From: a bacterium
GTDB lineage: Bacteria; Cyanobacteriota; Vampirovibrionia; Gastranaerophilales; JBAXKC01
Direction of reading: 5' to 3'
Assembly (NCBI GenBank): GCA_037137535.1
Contig: JBAXKC010000001.1
Coordinates: forward strand, 64,001 to 128,000
DNA length: 64,000 nt
Shown piece by piece: positions 41,235 through 49,150 of this stretch; position 1 is the first letter of the stretch, and each line of letters starts with the position of its first letter. Under the pieces are notes generated by a model that was not told the origin of the DNA, did not search any database, and saw only the letters and a program-made list of their open reading frames with translations. The position numbers and the translations under genes are program-made.

Positions 41235-41654
41235 ATGTTAAAAAAACCTTTTATTTTAAGTCTGATGTTATTCGGAATATCGATATTGATAGCTATAATT
41301 TTTTCAATATTTATTACTCTTTTTAAGATAAATATAGGTTCATTTATAATCGCCATAGCTGCTACTAATTTAGCTGCCGCCATTACAGGTACGATATATA
41401 CAGGCAAATATAAAGTGGCACTTAATAAAAATGAAAAAATAAAAATTTCAGGATATTACTTTGCAATTCAAATAATAACGTCTACATGTCTAATTTATTT
41501 ACTAAAGATTAAATCAATAGAACTTATAATGGCTATAACCCTAATTCCATTGTTTCTTCTTACTTTAATAATCTATTTTTCACTTGGGAGGGGCTGTAAA
41601 ACAAAACTAAGAGAACTAGAAAAAAAAGAATTATTAAATAAATCTTCAGTTTAA
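41235..41654 (+). CDS. Four-TM membrane protein
   Basis: Hydrophobic 139-aa ORF following aroQ. Confidence 0.7.
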   Translation: MLKKPFILSLMLFGISILIAIIFSIFITLFKINIGSFIIAIAATNLAAAITGTIYTGKYKVALNKNEKIKISGYYFAIQIITSTCLIYLLKIKSIELIMAITLIPLFLLTLIIYFSLGRGCKTKLRELEKKELLNKSSV

Positions 41655-41685
41655 AAAAATTAAGACCGTTTTAAAATTTTTCGCA

Positions 41686-41760
41686 AAATAAAAGCCACCT
41701 TTTTGGGCGGCTACCAGACTTTGGGGAGGAGGTTGGGGTATGACCATTTGTTTGGTCTAT
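41686..41760 (-). ncRNA. Candidate sigma-28-dependent small RNA with anti-Shine-Dalgarno tract
   Basis: Minus strand: 5' hairpin GACCA-AACAAA-TGGTC, tract ATACCCCAACCTCCTCCCCAAAG, terminator AGCCGCC-CAAAAA-GGTGGCT-TTTATTTT; directly downstream of a consensus sigma-28 promoter. Confidence 0.7.
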
Positions 41761-41767
41761 ATTTTAT

Positions 41768-41794
41768 TTATCGGCAAATTATTTTAAAACTTTA
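41768..41794 (-). promoter_or_regulatory. Sigma-28 (FliA) promoter, perfect consensus
   Basis: Minus strand TAAA-GTTTTAAAATAATTT(15 nt)-GCCGATAA, including the extended TAAAGTTT -35. Confidence 0.85.
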
Positions 41795-41835
41795 GGGTTT
41801 TATTTGAAGCAATTAATATTTCTTAACAAAAGTCA

Positions 41836-41865
41836 AAAACCGTTTGCGACAAAACAAACGGTTTT
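41836..41865 (-). terminator. Intrinsic terminator of the flgE operon
   Basis: AAAACCGTTTG...CAAACGGTTTT inverted repeat 22 nt after the flgE stop. Confidence 0.75.
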
Positions 41866-41887: not shown

Positions 41888-43261
41888 TTATCTTCCGATG
41901 TTAATGATTGATTGCATTATCTGACTCTGTGTTGAGAAAACTCTACTACTTGCTTCAATTCCTCTTTGAGCCAGCATCATCTCTGAGAATTCAGTAGGTA
42001 AGTCGATATTTGCTGTTTCTAATGCCCCAGAATCCACCATTCCAAGTCCACCTGCTTTACCCACGCCATACATAGTGTTTCCTGAACCTGGTCCAAACTG
42101 AAAAAGGTTACCTGACGTGGACATTAAACCTTTTGGATTTGCAACGTTACAAATCTGCAATTGTAATTCTTGAGGCTTTATAGCAGTAACAGAACCACCA
42201 TTAGCTCCTGTAATATCTGCTCCATTAATCTCAGTACCTGTTACTGTTTTATAAGATAAAGCTCTTACCGGATCTCCTGATACTGTAATTTTAGCACCGT
42301 TAGAATAAACTGCTTCAATTGCTCCATCTTTACCTACGGAAAAAGAGGACATTGAATATGTACTTGGAGAAGAATCACCCGGCTCAATACTTATTTTATT
42401 GGTATTTTTCAATCCTATGCTTGAAGTTGTAGTTACAGGAGTAGAAGCGGCAGGGTCTAAAGTTAAAGAATTAAAACCCATTACACTAAAGAAATTACTG
42501 GAATCTCCCGAGTCGCCGAATGTAACTTTTGCAGTAGCTCCGGGACTAGGCTCATCCGGTGCAATGTCAATACTAAGTTTATTTCCTGTAATAGTAGCGG
42601 TTACACCATCAAGAGCATCTATATCTGCTCTTACACTTTCAATTGTGGAATTTTTATCAATGGTAACTGTCTTAGTAGTTACGCTTGTAGGCGAGCCTAA
42701 TCCATCATCAATTTTAAAACTGAATGTTCCCTCAGAAACTGCAGGAGCTTGTCCGGAACATGCATTGGTGATTTTATCTCCAGCCGCAGCATCAGGCATT
42801 GAAAGTTTTAAAGTCTGAGGAATTCTAATCGGAGCTACACTTCCGGAAGGACTAACTACGTTTGCTGTGCCTAGAACTGATAAACCTTGAGGAGTAACAA
42901 GGTTTCCATCTCCATTAATGGAGAAGTTACCGGCTCTTGTCAAAGAAATAGAACCTAGAGGATCTTTAACCGTAAAAAAGCCATCACCTTGAATGTTAAG
43001 ATCGGTAGTTCTTCCTGTTGTTTGAACTGTTCCATTTGAAAAGTTTCTTGATACCTCAGAAAGTGTCGCACCAAGACCAACCTGCATCGGGTTTGTATTA
43101 CTTGATCCATTAGTAAGAGTTCTTACAAAGATATTTTCAAAGTTTACTTTACTACCTTTAAAACCTACCGTATTCATGTTTGCGATATTATCCGCAATTA
43201 CATCTAATTTTGTCTGTGATGTTTTAAGACCCGTAATTGCTGTAAATAGGGCTTGAGACAT
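41888..43261 (-). CDS. flgE: Flagellar hook protein
   Basis: IADNIANMNTVGFKGS, TGRTTDLNIQGDGFF, TRAGNF, GALETANIDL..EFSEMMLAQRG; follows flgD. Confidence 0.93.
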   Translation of the reverse strand: MSQALFTAITGLKTSQTKLDVIADNIANMNTVGFKGSKVNFENIFVRTLTNGSSNTNPMQVGLGATLSEVSRNFSNGTVQTTGRTTDLNIQGDGFFTVKDPLGSISLTRAGNFSINGDGNLVTPQGLSVLGTANVVSPSGSVAPIRIPQTLKLSMPDAAAGDKITNACSGQAPAVSEGTFSFKIDDGLGSPTSVTTKTVTIDKNSTIESVRADIDALDGVTATITGNKLSIDIAPDEPSPGATAKVTFGDSGDSSNFFSVMGFNSLTLDPAASTPVTTTSSIGLKNTNKISIEPGDSSPSTYSMSSFSVGKDGAIEAVYSNGAKITVSGDPVRALSYKTVTGTEINGADITGANGGSVTAIKPQELQLQICNVANPKGLMSTSGNLFQFGPGSGNTMYGVGKAGGLGMVDSGALETANIDLPTEFSEMMLAQRGIEASSRVFSTQSQIMQSIINIGR

Positions 43262-43287
43262 TATTCAACCTCCTCAATCAATATTAT

Positions 43288-43707
43288 TTATTTTATGCTC
43301 TGTACTAAATTCATCGGATATGCCTTGTTATTAATAAGAAGATTAGCACCCTTGCTATCTATCTGTGCCTCACTGACTACACCCTTAATGGTACTATTTG
43401 GATTATCAGGATCTGTCATTGTAACTTCTTTTCCAATAAGAGCACTTGCTTGCATAATTTGATTAGATGAATTCTGATTTTTATTTAATTTTTGAAGCTC
43501 GCTTATCTGTGTAAATTGAGCGGTTTGTTGAATAAATTGCTCATTTTTTGTTGGCTCCATAGGATCCTGATTTTGCATTTGCTGCATCAATAATTGAAGA
43601 AATGCATCCTGATCCATGTTACTGCTGCCCATTCTGGTTTTTGCTTTCTCCGCATTAACCATTTTAGTATTATTGGTTATATCTGTTAATGTATTTTGTA
43701 CTAACAT
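43288..43707 (-). CDS. flgD: Flagellar hook capping protein
   Basis: DAFLQLLMQQMQNQDPMEP, AQFTQ and QASALIGKEV motifs. Confidence 0.95.
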   Translation of the reverse strand: MLVQNTLTDITNNTKMVNAEKAKTRMGSSNMDQDAFLQLLMQQMQNQDPMEPTKNEQFIQQTAQFTQISELQKLNKNQNSSNQIMQASALIGKEVTMTDPDNPNSTIKGVVSEAQIDSKGANLLINNKAYPMNLVQSIK

Positions 43708-43724
43708 GCTTACCCCTTTTCCTC

Positions 43725-45383
43725 CTAGATAGTGTAATCGACTAATCCCTGATGATTAAGCGTTTGTGGCTGAGCTGACGTATCTGCTTCAATCTCACCT
43801 AAATCTTTCTGATAATTATTCATCAACGTCCCCTCTGAGGTTTCATTGCTATTTTGCGATGATTTGTTTTGATTATTCAAATTAGATTGCTCAAATGCCT
43901 GTGCATTTTCATTAAACTGTTGAGAAGGGTTTTGATTTTGTGGTGATTGTTCGGAAGATTGAACTACTATCTTGCCTACGCTGATTCCTTGCTCTGTTAA
44001 TGTCTGTTTTAAGGATTCTATACCTTTATTTATTATTTCTTTGACATGCTCATTTTCAGTATCTATTTTAGCGGTTAAAACACCATTTTCACTTATTAAC
44101 TTAATATCAACTTTACCTAACTTATCGGGTCTTAATGATATTGTTATTTCTTTGTTATCCTGCTTTAATTCCGCTTTTAGCTTGTCATTAATTTGATTTA
44201 ATATCTCTTTTGCCTGTTCACTTCTTTGAGCTAATGGAGTTTTTTCTATTTTCAGCTGTGCTGCAAAGTCCGATTTAGCTACTCCTTGCATTTCACCTGT
44301 TGCCATTAATTTAAAATCAGGCTGTTTTTGAGCGAAATTATTTGAATTTGTACCATTTTTACCCATACTTGAAGTATCTTTAGAAACCTGTTGAATTTGC
44401 ATTCTTGCCATCATAGTTTTTACATCTTCAGTCTGTTCATTACTTCTAGGAGCTTTAACAGAGACTTCTTGCTTTTTAGTTTCTAATGGTCTTTCAACCT
44501 TTTGAGTCAAGGTATCATTATTCTCTGAAACTTTTACCGTTGCATCTTTATCAATATTAATTTCAGGTTTATTTTTTAATTTTTCAATATTTTTCTTATT
44601 TTCTAAAATATTATGTTTTTCTGATACTTCGGCAAGAACTTTTTTATTATTAGAGATTTGTTCTTTGTTATTAACATTTTCTACTTTAAAGTCAACAACA
44701 TCCTTTTTAGCCTCTGTTGCATTATCTGTATTTTTTGTATGAGTACTAATATGCTTTAATTTTGACTCAAGCTCAGCAACTTTATCCGTTGTCTCCGGCT
44801 TACCTTTAACATCTACCCCTTCAGCTATATTTTTTGACTTAATTTCTGATTTAAACTCTGATTTGGGAACGGTTACGGATTTTAGTTTATTATTTTGTTC
44901 TTTAATCTCAGTTTGTCCCAGTTTTTCAGTTGATATAGGTTGTTTTGTATAAACAACAGGTTGCTCAGGCTTTTCTCCGGTTTTAATCTCTTGTTTAGGA
45001 GCTACATAAGATTGAGTATTAATGTATAGACTTGGATCAATTTCATTTTTATCTTTTTCAGAAGAATTCTTTTTAGTACTTTCTTCCTCTTTATGTTCAT
45101 TTATATATGACTTTTCAGAAGGAGAATAAGAATTTTTTGACACTTCATTCTGTTGATTATAGCTATAATCATTATTTTTAACCTCTGACTGATTAGACTG
45201 TTTTGAATCAGCCATAGACATAGAATTAAATTTACTTTTTTGAAATGTAATAGTTTTAGATGCAAACTCAAATATATTTGCAAACCCCTTAGCATCAGAA
45301 GAATCCATTGCCTTTTTCCCTTGAGAAATAGGAGAAACAGAAGGTTTTACTCTGTCTATCGTTGTTTCATTTAAAACTGTCAT
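43725..45383 (-). CDS. fliK: Flagellar hook-length control protein
   Basis: Long low-complexity N-region plus C-terminal LRPDKLGKVDI...LKQTLTEQGI T3S4 domain; position before flgD. Confidence 0.88.
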   Translation of the reverse strand: MTVLNETTIDRVKPSVSPISQGKKAMDSSDAKGFANIFEFASKTITFQKSKFNSMSMADSKQSNQSEVKNNDYSYNQQNEVSKNSYSPSEKSYINEHKEEESTKKNSSEKDKNEIDPSLYINTQSYVAPKQEIKTGEKPEQPVVYTKQPISTEKLGQTEIKEQNNKLKSVTVPKSEFKSEIKSKNIAEGVDVKGKPETTDKVAELESKLKHISTHTKNTDNATEAKKDVVDFKVENVNNKEQISNNKKVLAEVSEKHNILENKKNIEKLKNKPEINIDKDATVKVSENNDTLTQKVERPLETKKQEVSVKAPRSNEQTEDVKTMMARMQIQQVSKDTSSMGKNGTNSNNFAQKQPDFKLMATGEMQGVAKSDFAAQLKIEKTPLAQRSEQAKEILNQINDKLKAELKQDNKEITISLRPDKLGKVDIKLISENGVLTAKIDTENEHVKEIINKGIESLKQTLTEQGISVGKIVVQSSEQSPQNQNPSQQFNENAQAFEQSNLNNQNKSSQNSNETSEGTLMNNYQKDLGEIEADTSAQPQTLNHQGLVDYTI

Positions 45384-45398
45384 CCTCGTCCCCTTACT

Positions 45399-45854
45399 TT
45401 ATATACTCTGATTTCTTATGTATCTTGATGTCGCAATATCATCAATTTCAGCCATTGTATGTTTTTCTATCTTTTCATTAAATTCTTTTAAACCTTTCTC
45501 TTTAAGTTTTTCAAGAATTTTCTTTGCTTTCATTGCTTCGAGCATTATGTTCTTTTTTTCTTCCAGTTCAAACTCAACGTCAGCTATTACTTTATGTTGA
45601 TGTCCGATATCAGATTCAAGTTTTACTATATAACCCCTATAGTTATTAATAGTAAAAGGATCAATTGATAATGAAGAAGAAAGTACCGACTTTAAGCCCA
45701 CATTTGTTTGCTTTAACTTATCATAGAGCTCTTCTAACTTTTTATTTTCCAATTGCAACTTATATTGCACTCTGGAAAACTCAAGCTGAGCATTTTCAAG
45801 CTGATTTGTTCTAGTATCAAGTAAACTTTGAAGCCGAAACTTATAGCCTTTCAA
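45399..45854 (-). CDS. fliJ: Flagellar export protein FliJ
   Basis: YKFRLQSLLD start, coiled coil, KILEKLKEK...EIDDIA end. Confidence 0.88.
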   Translation of the reverse strand: MKGYKFRLQSLLDTRTNQLENAQLEFSRVQYKLQLENKKLEELYDKLKQTNVGLKSVLSSSLSIDPFTINNYRGYIVKLESDIGHQHKVIADVEFELEEKKNIMLEAMKAKKILEKLKEKGLKEFNEKIEKHTMAEIDDIATSRYIRNQSI

Positions 45855-46097
45855 CCCGAACCCCTACTGATAATAAGTTGTTATACCCCGTCATATAAGA
45901 AGATTACCTCATGAAAAAAACCTTTACATCCTCCAAAAAAAGTATAAGAACCCCAATACTTTAGTAGGATAAGGATTAACGATGAATATATAGACCATCT
46001 GGTCTATATCCAAAGACAGATGGAGAAACATGATTGTATTATTAAAATAATATATATAATGTTTCATTAAAGTTGTTTTAGAAAAGAGGAATATCTT

Positions 46098-46229
46098 ATG
46101 ACACATGATGAAAAGTTAAATAAATATTACGCTTATGCTGCTAAAAAACTTCTTAAAGAAAAAAAATTAGACCTTTTTAAATGGGTAACATCAATGAATA
46201 AAAAACCAGAACAAGACTTTTTGTTTTAA
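46098..46229 (+). CDS. 43-aa microprotein, paralog A
   Basis: MTHDEKLNKYYAYAAKKLLKEKKLDLFKWVTSMNKKPEQDFLF*; SD GAGGA; homologous to 46335-46484. Confidence 0.7.
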   Translation: MTHDEKLNKYYAYAAKKLLKEKKLDLFKWVTSMNKKPEQDFLF

Positions 46230-46539: not shown

Positions 46540-48276
46540 CTATTTTGTAGTTTTGACAACTTCATTATTATCAGAATTAAATTCTGTTTTAGCAGACTGC
46601 TGAATTTTTTCTATTTCTTTTTTAAGCGTTGGTAATTCTTTATCCTTGCCTGTTTTTTTATACCAATCATCTAACAATTTTTTATATTCTTCACCTGAGA
46701 AATTATTTCCGCCTTTTCCTGCAACTTCTTTATATAATCCAACATATTCTTCGATAAATTCTCTATGGAAATCAATAATTTTCTTGGCAATAAGACTTGC
46801 CGAATCAGATATTTGCTTAATATCTTTAGAAACTTCCTGAGTTACAGCTGATTTTGCATAATCATTAGCTTTAGCACAAACTTGTTTTGTATTAGGCCCT
46901 AATCCTAAAGCAGTAACACCATCTGTAATTATCTCTGTGGCAACTTTAAGATCTTCAGAAACTCCATCAAGGTTTGTACCGCCTAATCTGGCTCTTTCAA
47001 TATTATAACTTCCATAACAGACAGCCGCTTCTGCCAGCATTGAATTAAAGGACATATGAGGGTTTTCCCCTTCATCTGTAAATACTGCACCAAGGAATTT
47101 ATCCCTTTCATCAAGACTTATAATTGAGTTTTGATGAGGCTTTTCCCATGGATTTTTAGCAAAATCGGATAATACTTGTCCGACAAGAGCATGTCCGCAT
47201 TCATGAGCAACTGTATTTTCCTTATCCCACTTTGGAAGATCTGAGAAAACTTTAGGACCTGCCAATAATTCTATTTTAGATTCAAAAATATCATTAGTTG
47301 TAATATATTTAGGCTCATCCCTTAAAGCAGCAAAATTTGCAGCTCTATTCATTACTTCAGCAAGCTGAGCACCTGAAAGTCCTCTAGTTATTTTTGCTCC
47401 CTCTTCAAGAACTTTCTTTTTATCTTCTTCCGATTTGAATTTCTTATCTAAAGAATGAATAGCCAGAATTTCAGTTCTTGCCTGTTTATTTCTTGAAGGA
47501 TTAGGAATTTTCAAAGTATAATCAAATCTTCCCGGTCTTATAGCGGCGGCATCAAGATCTTCAAGTCTATTTGTAGCCGCAAGGAAAATAATTCCTTTAT
47601 TATCAGTCGTTCCATCCATTTCTCTTAAAAACTGATTAAGAACCTTTCTGTCTTCGTTATGCTCATTGTCTTTACCTCTTGCCCCTGCTAATGAATCAAA
47701 TTCATCAATCAAAACAATAACTTTATGTGCAGGTGTATCAGTGACAACTTCTCTTGCTTTTACAAATAAAGCCTTAACTGCCTTAGGTCCATCGCCTAAA
47801 TATTTTTGAGCAAAATCACTTCCTGAAACTGAAATCAGAGGTAGTTCCGCTTCTCCTGCTATTGCTTTAGCTAAAAGAGTTTTACCGGTTCCGGGCGGGC
47901 CATATAATAAAATCCCTTTAGGTATTTTAGCTCCTTGCTCTGCAAATTTTTCAGGATGCTTCATATATTCTATAACTCGGTTTTTGATGATATCTTTAAT
48001 TTCACTAATACCCCCAACATCTTTAAGTTTTACGCCTGTATAATGAATCACGTTAAATTCAGGGAGTTCACTATCACTTCCAAATGCGCTAAAACCTTTA
48101 AATGGCAAAAAATTAGCTTTTAAGTGATTTGCATTATAATTAGACAACAAAGCGTTATGGGATAATGCTAATCCATTTGTTTTTAACTGACTTTTCTGTT
48201 GAGTTTGTTTCTTTTGCAACTCAATACTGTTCAATCCTTCATTCAAAAATAAAGGATTCAGTTTAACTGAAACCAT
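46540..48276 (-). CDS. FtsH-like AAA+ ATPase/M41 metalloprotease lacking membrane anchors
   Basis: PKGILLYGPPGTGKT, LIDEFD, AATNR..LD.A.IRPGRFD and HECGH motifs; no hydrophobic N-terminal helices. Confidence 0.88.
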   Translation of the reverse strand: MVSVKLNPLFLNEGLNSIELQKKQTQQKSQLKTNGLALSHNALLSNYNANHLKANFLPFKGFSAFGSDSELPEFNVIHYTGVKLKDVGGISEIKDIIKNRVIEYMKHPEKFAEQGAKIPKGILLYGPPGTGKTLLAKAIAGEAELPLISVSGSDFAQKYLGDGPKAVKALFVKAREVVTDTPAHKVIVLIDEFDSLAGARGKDNEHNEDRKVLNQFLREMDGTTDNKGIIFLAATNRLEDLDAAAIRPGRFDYTLKIPNPSRNKQARTEILAIHSLDKKFKSEEDKKKVLEEGAKITRGLSGAQLAEVMNRAANFAALRDEPKYITTNDIFESKIELLAGPKVFSDLPKWDKENTVAHECGHALVGQVLSDFAKNPWEKPHQNSIISLDERDKFLGAVFTDEGENPHMSFNSMLAEAAVCYGSYNIERARLGGTNLDGVSEDLKVATEIITDGVTALGLGPNTKQVCAKANDYAKSAVTQEVSKDIKQISDSASLIAKKIIDFHREFIEEYVGLYKEVAGKGGNNFSGEEYKKLLDDWYKKTGKDKELPTLKKEIEKIQQSAKTEFNSDNNEVVKTTK

Positions 48277-48580
48277 TCTGATCTCTCCTTCTACCTTCGC
48301 CTCTTTTAGTGTTTAACGTACACTTATATTTACTGTTTTAAATTATATATCAAATTTTAAAATCATACCCAATTCTTTATTAAATTATTATATCTTTATA
48401 AATCCTTTCAGGGCGAATTCAGGCAGGCAGCAGAGACCCACATGTAAAACATGCATTTAAAATATTTATTAAATATATACAAAATACGCAATTTTCAAGA
48501 TCAGTTTGTTTTTATATAAATACAGAGGGAAATAAAAAAGAGAATTTAAAATAAAGCGAGTTTTTTGGGGAGGCAGGTTT

Positions 48581-49150
48581 ATGGGTTTTGACGATATTTC
48601 ATTAGCAAAAATTAAATTTCATTCTTATACTTCAACAACTTCAAATGGAAATGTACAATCAGCAAATCCTTTTAATCAAAGTATTTTTTCAAATTCTACT
48701 TCAGTAAATACAAAGACTCCAAATTCTAGTCTTTCTTATAATAATTCACAGTTCGGAGTGACAACGCCAAACTCCTCTGTTTTTAACAGTTCAACAAGTT
48801 TAAATTATTCAACAACTAATGCAAACAATAACGATAGCTCAATATTTGCAAAGAAGCATCACCATGCACACCACCATCAACATAAAAACAAGGTAGATAC
48901 AGCGAGTAATCCTCAACTTGATGCGATACTTGCCAATGTTGACAATTATATTGCACAATTAGAACAACAAAGTCAGACACAAGAATCCAATAATCCTGAC
49001 AATCAAAATACTGATAATAATGGAGACGATGACAACTTCTTTAAAAAATTAACAAAAACTGCTATTCCAATAGCAATGAGCTTCACAGGTGCAGGCGGCA
49101 ATCCGATTACTGATGCAATAGGTGGTATTGGCGGACTATTTGGTCTTTAA
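48581..49150 (+). CDS. Low-complexity Ser/Asn/His-rich hypothetical protein
   Basis: 189-aa ORF with strong SD (GGAGG); His cluster; Gly-rich C-terminus. Confidence 0.7.
   Translation: MGFDDISLAKIKFHSYTSTTSNGNVQSANPFNQSIFSNSTSVNTKTPNSSLSYNNSQFGVTTPNSSVFNSSTSLNYSTTNANNNDSSIFAKKHHHAHHHQHKNKVDTASNPQLDAILANVDNYIAQLEQQSQTQESNNPDNQNTDNNGDDDNFFKKLTKTAIPIAMSFTGAGGNPITDAIGGIGGLFGL

Follow-up and report, generated by a model that had tools for sequence, protein, structure and literature searches.

The hook operon and a small RNA gene downstream of flgE

The stretch of 64,000 nucleotides (nt) analysed here, referred to as the window, corresponds to positions 64,001 to 128,000 of contig JBAXKC010000001.1 (C1) in the assembly GCA_037137535.1 from a bacterium of the order Gastranaerophilales (the source genome, G000; 2.95 Mb, 81 contigs, 31% G+C). 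On its minus strand the window carries a hook operon and, behind it, a gene for a small RNA (sRNA) with a single-stranded tract complementary to the start regions of the operon genes. The operon begins with fliJ (45399..45854), for which a TTG start at 45854 was read from the sequence, and continues with fliK for hook-length control (43725..45383), flgD for the hook cap (43288..43707) and flgE for the hook protein (41888..43261), all assigned by Pfam. An intrinsic terminator of the operon (41836..41865, minus) lies between the flgE stop and the sRNA promoter.

The sRNA gene of about 73 nt (41686..41758, minus) follows the flgE terminator and has a promoter and a terminator of its own. The promoter (41768..41794, minus) is of the sigma-28 type, consisting of TAAAG, a 14-nt spacer and GCCGATAA. 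In the predicted fold, a C-rich tract about 29 nt long stays open between a 5' hairpin and the terminator; the minimum free energy (MFE) was -19.2 kcal/mol and the z-score -3.05. The tract (41713..41741, minus), in which two CCCC blocks flank CCUCCU and are followed by AAAGUCUGGU, was unpaired in the MFE, centroid and consensus folds and forms the predicted pairing surface. The consensus fold of 30 homologues gave the terminator only, as MAFFT misaligned the variable 5' hairpin, the arms of which change between homologues but stay self-complementary. No Rfam family matched at gathering score over the window, and matches over 41650-41850 were at chance level only (E of at least 0.67). A literature search on small RNAs of Melainabacteria, judged by titles and the starts of abstracts, found no paper on such an RNA. 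As far as its sequence tells, the sRNA is an uncatalogued family.

Nine copies of the sRNA, near-identical over their transcribed part, were identified in the source genome, three of them in tandem. Each was preceded by its own sigma-28-type box, and the motif TAAAG-N14-GCCGATAA was kept while spacers and flanks diverged, so that the genome holds paralogous RNAs with a common conserved pairing region. The eight copies other than the one described above were located on four further contigs, and no called flagellar gene was listed alongside them, their neighbours being unannotated. The DNA depth was 376 over the sRNA and 36 beside it, which fits about ten collapsed copies. The same promoter motif was found upstream of one flagellin gene; the other five flagellins had no pattern match within 260 nt. 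The source genome also encodes a FliA/WhiG sigma factor (247 bits; cut-off, 189.6). Part of the stretch occurs in five sequencing runs. Contigs from RNA libraries of the source sample contained pieces of flgE, flgD, fliK and fliJ at a depth of 1-5 and left the sRNA uncovered; such contigs cannot show a 73-nt transcript, and carried-over DNA may contribute to them. Separately, three degenerate RNA-like units were observed on contig C8 (G000:C8:58500-58850), with a hairpin-plus-ACCCC start in common and diverged C-rich tracts; they could represent either decayed copies or another family.

The original prediction proposed that the sRNA shuts down translation of hook and export genes once sigma-28 is active, and it named G-rich motifs in the leaders of the operon, all of which were found in place when the minus strand was read over 43000-46200. 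The 10-mer GAGGAGGTTG serving as the Shine-Dalgarno (SD) sequence of flgE (43266..43275, minus), 5 nt before the ATG, is a perfect complement of RNA nt 24-33, namely CAACCTCCTC at 41726-41735 on the minus strand. In the window this 10-mer occurred twice, with 0.03 occurrences expected, and 1 of 100 shuffles reached two. Genome-wide it occurred 12 times, comprising nine antisense matches to the sRNA copies, the flgE site and two sites away from called starts, which makes the flgE site the sole copy at a called gene start. The flgD leader (43710..43726, minus) carries AGGAGG and GGGGTA, pairing with CCUCCU and UACCCC, and the fliK leader carries GGGGACGAGG immediately 5' of the ATG (about 45384..45394, minus). 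For fliJ, the predicted site (45852..45872, minus) spans the ribosome-binding region and the start codon and includes a further GGGG (45861-45864) right at the ribosome-binding region. The upstream motifs GGGGTAT (45883-45889, minus) and TTGGGGT (45950-45956, minus), 30 and about 100 nt from the start, were present as well. The predicted duplexes reached -19.3 kcal/mol for flgE (mRNA -19..-4), -20.7 kcal/mol for flgD (mRNA -19..-3) and -19.3 kcal/mol for fliJ, and all eight duplexes that were drawn overlap the SD or the start codon.

Genome-wide ranking of flagellar leaders

The complementarity was assessed against the whole source genome, in which 2535 open reading frames (ORFs) of at least 90 amino acids (aa) were called with a simple caller of our own and 37 primary flagellar genes were assigned by Pfam. 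Start regions (-30..+6) were scored against the C-rich tract with ViennaRNA duplexfold. The four operon genes ranked at 22 (flgD and fliK) and 40 (fliJ and flgE). Flagellar genes contributed 5 leaders to the top 25, 10 to the top 50, 16 to the top 100 and 20 to the top 250 (hypergeometric p=7e-14 at the top 100; Mann-Whitney p=2.6e-11), where these and all later p-values are upper bounds on the strength of the evidence, since flagellar genes share operons and relatives share ancestry and independence is overstated. The top 100 included 4/4 genes of the hook operon, 8/11 of the flgF-L cluster, 2/7 of fliE-I/flgBC, 1/5 of mot/fliLMY, 1/4 of the export genes and none of the six flagellins. Complementarity was accordingly located on early and middle but not on late flagellar leaders (16/37 versus 0/6). 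A perfect complement of at least 10 nt to the single-stranded tract was present in only five leaders of the genome, those of flgE, flgN and three non-flagellar genes.

The original prediction had itself cautioned that every strong SD will pair with an anti-SD sequence. An alternative explanation is that the sRNA is a general anti-SD competitor, or has its main effect on a handful of non-flagellar mRNAs through long duplexes; the hook matches would then have no dedicated function, and the flagellar scores would follow from strong, G-rich ribosome-binding sites. We regard this as unlikely, though a good deal of the signal is indeed generic. Because no 16S rRNA gene was found in the source assembly, the anti-SD control used a textbook 16S tail. 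Pairing with this tail alone separated flagellar from other genes (p=2.8e-6) with an area under the curve (AUC) of 0.72, and shuffled C-rich tracts gave 0.73. Nevertheless, after regression on pairing with the 16S tail the flagellar enrichment persisted (p=1.3e-7). It also held among operon-internal genes only (p=1e-7) and among the 341 genes with a strong SD, where the 14 flagellar members scored better than the rest (-15.5 versus -12.9 kcal/mol, p=0.015). In the shuffle control, scored on the 37 flagellar and 500 random other leaders, none of 265 composition-preserving shuffles reached the real tract on any of three measures; the AUC was 0.81 for the real tract and 0.73 +/- 0.03 for the shuffles (maximum 0.806), and 17 leaders fell in the top 4%, compared with a shuffle mean of 5.6 and a maximum of 13. 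The leader complementarity is more than chance, and the enrichment outlasts the SD, shuffle, operon and strong-SD controls. The outcome that the original prediction had named as refuting it, flagellar leaders with scores no better than those of other SD-containing genes, was not observed.

The residual ranks after SD regression separated the four operon genes. Those of fliK (15), fliJ (16) and flgD (40) remained near the top of the 2535 leaders, and these three leaders match far beyond what SD strength predicts. The flgE leader, the headline site of the original prediction, fell to 233, the weakest of the four; its 10-mer, although a perfect complement, is largely a very strong SD, as the general-competitor explanation would have it. 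In a run over all 2535 leaders with a crude accessibility term, the ranks were 22 for fliK, 58 for flgD, 92 for fliJ and 121 for flgE, and flagellar genes took 6 places in the top 25 and 10 in the top 100 (p=8e-7); in this run 105 leaders, including those of flgL, fliF and motA, bore an artefactual length penalty.

Conservation of the small RNA and its flagellar sites in relatives

Of 41 genomes examined from the order Gastranaerophilales, the source genome counted, 33 contained the sRNA. A pattern scan of named genomes retrieved it from metagenome-assembled genomes designated Candidatus Gastranaerophilales, Melainabacteria and Vampirovibrio (at least 120 stretches; about 590 estimated). Across 30 aligned homologues the tract varied in its 5' part (CAACC), on which the original prediction had drawn, and was invariant or nearly so over its 3' two-thirds, CCUCCUCCCC and then AAGUCU.GUAGCCG.

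Leaders were then ranked in about 0.3-0.4 Mb from each of four relatives of other families, each against its own RNA tract. Flagellar genes were enriched in G015 of family f9 (19 flagellar among 384 called genes; Mann-Whitney p=6e-5, residual after SD correction p=1e-3), in G001 of f2 (22/341; p=8.8e-7, residual p=1.2e-5), in which 11 flagellar genes were within the top 24, and in G019 of f5 (22/285; p=6.3e-5, residual p=6.3e-4). The enrichment outlasting SD regression in these three relatives and in the source genome argues against a general competitor. The best conserved predicted target was the fliJ leader. In the three sampled genomes whose stretches contained it, its rank was 3/384 in G015, 2/341 in G001 and 1/285 in G019. 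Measured against 1046 pooled background leaders, it reached the top 5% in 16/17 relatives and the top 1% in 12 of them; these 17, from seven families, are the relatives with both a fliJ leader and an RNA sequence, and eight more with a fliJ leader were left out. Conservation of this site in seven families is likewise hard to reconcile with a general competitor.

A GGGG motif at -25..-3 was more frequent in flagellar than in other leaders of all five genomes, by a factor of 4 to 16: 9/37 versus 5.9% in the source genome, 7/19 versus 3.4% in G015, 8/22 versus 2.2% in G001, 7/22 versus 5.3% in G019 and 6/27 versus 5.6% in G007 of family f8. Across relatives, GGGG was present in 17/26 flgE and 18/26 flgD leaders, compared with 5.0% of the 1046 background leaders. 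With the textbook 16S tail, GGGG would not be selected by the ribosome's own anti-SD, and its enrichment in flagellar leaders speaks against the general-competitor explanation. Scored against the RNA tract of the same genome, the flgE leader was in the top 5% in 10/17 relatives and the flgD leader in 5/16. The flgE leader of most relatives pairs in a different register from that of the window, by GGGGAG(G) against an invariant CCUCCCC.

A further alternative dispenses with pairing altogether. The G-rich leaders might be bound by a protein regulator, or reflect a codon or SD habit of horizontally acquired flagellar genes, with the sRNA acting otherwise (for example, by binding a protein through its invariant 3' half) and the complementarity being coincidental. 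The invariant stretch does extend beyond the SD-like core to AAGUCU.GUAGCCG, a sequence with matches in few leaders, and a second flagellar-like gene set of the source genome (17 genes on two other contigs) was not enriched among the ranked leaders (p=0.12 and 0.29), both in favour of this explanation. It is nonetheless improbable in our view. The tract is predicted to be open between hairpin and terminator, which is the usual build of a base-pairing RNA, long predicted duplexes with start regions exist, and the specificity over shuffled tracts is hard to explain without pairing.

Proposed role, further targets and related systems

We lean, with modest confidence, toward the reading that the hook-operon leaders are part of a wider hook, rod, ring and hook-associated set complementary to a high-copy sRNA with a sigma-28-type promoter, which would repress their translation. 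The complementarity was observed, as were its enrichment in flagellar leaders and its conservation; a fliA gene and the promoter motif are likewise present. From these we infer that the sRNA is made, driven by sigma-28, binds these mRNAs and represses through binding. In such a scheme, completion of the hook-basal body would free sigma-28 and the nine sRNA genes would fire. The sRNA would then pair over the SD or start codon of its target mRNAs and keep the 30S subunit from binding. Synthesis of early and middle flagellar proteins would drop, and flagellin mRNAs, which lack such sites, would be spared. This suggests a shut-off of early flagellar proteins much as proposed for Campylobacter.

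Several observations weigh against this reading, in addition to the large generic part of the signal, the low residual rank of flgE, the shared descent behind the p-values and the length artefact of the accessibility run. Our gene caller prefers SD-like upstream sequence in choosing starts. In G007 (27 flagellar among 347 called genes), the enrichment (Mann-Whitney p=0.017) was gone after SD correction (residual p=0.16), and in G015 the flgE leader ranked only 93/384. The sRNA lay within 1.5 kb of flgE in none of 29 FlgE loci of relatives, and the adjacency seen in the window is peculiar to the source genome. The expectation of the original prediction that hook and export genes would be targets was matched by the leader scores for the former but not generally for the latter, with flhA ranking 494, flhB 608 and fliI 2512 of 2535. 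The two remaining points, the strongest predicted sites lying on non-flagellar genes and the sRNA persisting in a family without flagella, are described below. Taken together, the original interpretation was partly supported by these sequence comparisons: they back it for the regulon and for fliJ, fliK and flgD, weakly for the flgE 10-mer, and not for the export genes.

The three strongest sites in the source genome lie on non-flagellar genes whose products have no Pfam family: an orphan of 189 aa, a protein of 417 aa (C27) and one of 376 aa (C1). Their duplexes, of -29 to -36 kcal/mol, reach into the non-SD part of the tract. These sites favour a general competitor, or an RNA acting mainly on such mRNAs. 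The strongest of all (-34.3 kcal/mol) is the leader of the 189-aa protein, a low-complexity ORF rich in Asn/Ser/Thr and His within the window (48581-49150, plus, in a feature spanning 48555..49150), which had no homologue among 40 relatives; a best non-flagellar target without homologues counts against that explanation. So does the 417-aa protein: G-rich leaders occur in several of its homologues, but in none of them is the segment of the long duplex preserved that extends into the non-SD 3' end of the tract. The gene for this repeat-rich protein (G000:C27:7547-8800, plus) encodes a conserved C-terminal domain with homologues in 11/40 relatives. A conserved TTGTTTTTATATA-like element was observed just 5' of its short leader, and a sigma-28-like box about 400 nt upstream in the source genome.

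In family f3, FlgE, FliG and FliJ were each absent from all 10 genomes, all about 99% complete. The sRNA core was kept in 8/10 of these genomes, its 5' half being altered and its promoter box degenerate, and a FliA/WhiG-type sigma factor scored above the curated cut-off in 5/5 genomes tested. The retention of the sRNA in a flagella-less family, which counts in favour of a general competitor, therefore implies at least one sRNA role outside true flagella. In G028, one of the f3 genomes, the top predicted targets had no common theme; a TonB-like gene ranked high both there and in the source genome, again in favour of a general competitor. Five f3 genomes (G002, G010, G017, G028 and G038) carry a single-copy sRNA variant with a different 5' hairpin.

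The second flagellar-like set mentioned above encodes export and rod components and is located at G000:C13:60-10372 (minus) and C7:21484-25501 (minus). It contains FliI, FlhA, FliH, FliF, FliE, SLT, rod-like proteins, FliPQR, FliO and a FliN-like protein, with no flagellin or hook genes beside them. Homologues were observed at G015:C1:29518-40210 and in G028, the family of which lacks FlgE and FliG. The flagella-less family f3 thus keeps the sRNA, a FliA-type sigma factor and this second flagellar-derived export set. A broader and tentative possibility, doubtful on present evidence, is that a G4-type SD "dialect" (GGGG or GGGGAGG) throughout Gastranaerophilales marks the hook-basal-body mRNAs as a group, to be silenced together by a multi-copy sigma-28 RNA of great abundance and with an anti-SD-like tract. 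Translation would then be the level at which class II of the flagellar hierarchy is shut off, and the retention in f3 would mean that the same module also governs a non-flagellar secretion machine.

C-rich sRNAs are known from Gram-positive bacteria, in which the unpaired C-rich motifs of RsaE/RoxS and of the LhrC family pair with G-rich SD regions, LhrC being multi-copy. None of the C-rich sRNAs catalogued in Rfam (RsaE/RoxS, LhrC and others) matched the sRNA by covariance model, and its control signal and lineage differ from theirs.

Closer in logic are CjNC1 and CjNC4 of Campylobacter jejuni (also CJnc10 and CJnc170, the latter named FlmR), two sigma-28-dependent paralogous sRNAs (PMC4626219). 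As described there, class II (sigma-54-dependent) flagellar genes, one for a hook protein among them, make up 7 of the ten top-scoring predicted targets, the predicted site overlaps the ribosome-binding site in 7/8 aligned targets, and repression in green fluorescent protein (GFP) reporters was partial and Hfq-independent (PMC4626219). Overexpression of CJnc170/FlmR is reported to shorten flagella and lower motility (PMC11187230). The RNAs described here resemble CjNC1/CjNC4 in being paralogous and in the predicted pairing over flagellar ribosome-binding sites, and their sigma-28-type promoter motif would put them under similar control, a likeness of logic. They differ in belonging to another phylum, in numbering nine rather than two, in their anti-SD-mimicking tract with two CCCC blocks and in persisting in a flagella-less family. 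The sRNA is a new family in another phylum, set beside the Campylobacter RNAs by logic only.

Another Campylobacter sRNA, CJnc230/FlmE, is encoded directly downstream of flgE and acts on flgM (PMC11187230). The sRNA in the window is also downstream of flgE; unlike CJnc230, it follows the flgE terminator and has a separate promoter, and the adjacency is not conserved. In E. coli, four UTR-derived (untranslated region) sigma-28-controlled RNAs, UhpU, MotR, FliX and FlgO, tune flagellar synthesis, with FliX lowering it; they are described as single-copy and Hfq-associated, with other modes of action (PMC10578931). The sRNA studied here, by comparison, is a stand-alone multi-copy gene with predicted pairing at start regions, and a UTR-derived origin like that of the E. 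coli RNAs was rejected, as the gene follows the flgE terminator and has a separate promoter.

Campylobacter is the only known case in which a late-gene sRNA has been proposed, and in part tested, to turn off early flagellar genes post-transcriptionally. Were non-photosynthetic relatives of cyanobacteria to use the same logic, this would argue that the cost of building flagella is met in this way recurrently. It would also provide the first concrete hypothesis of a regulatory RNA and its targets for this uncultured gut and freshwater lineage, in which the signature of the targets of an uncatalogued nine-copy sRNA is conserved in seven families. The short list of leaders from fliJ, fliK, flgD, flgN and flgI is testable in a heterologous reporter without culturing.

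Further observations concern the flagellar gene neighbourhoods. An FtsH-like AAA+/M41 protease gene (46540-48276, minus) lies upstream of the hook operon region in the window, at a position that fliI would occupy in operons of the Firmicutes type. Between flgJ and flgN, a putative flgM of 105 aa gave no FlgM match even at E=1. Matches to the C-terminal half only of FlhA (FHIPEP) were observed at G000:C2:107894, C34:584, C27:25255 and C60:3211 and at G015:C1:53538-55019, and one such protein of G015 is encoded directly upstream of fliJ. Directly upstream of the flgB-flgC-fliE-I genes, a histidine kinase and a LuxR-type response regulator are encoded at G000:C36:8079-10084 (minus); this pair is a candidate for flagellar master regulators, and the leader of the LuxR-type regulator was 16th in the first ranking.

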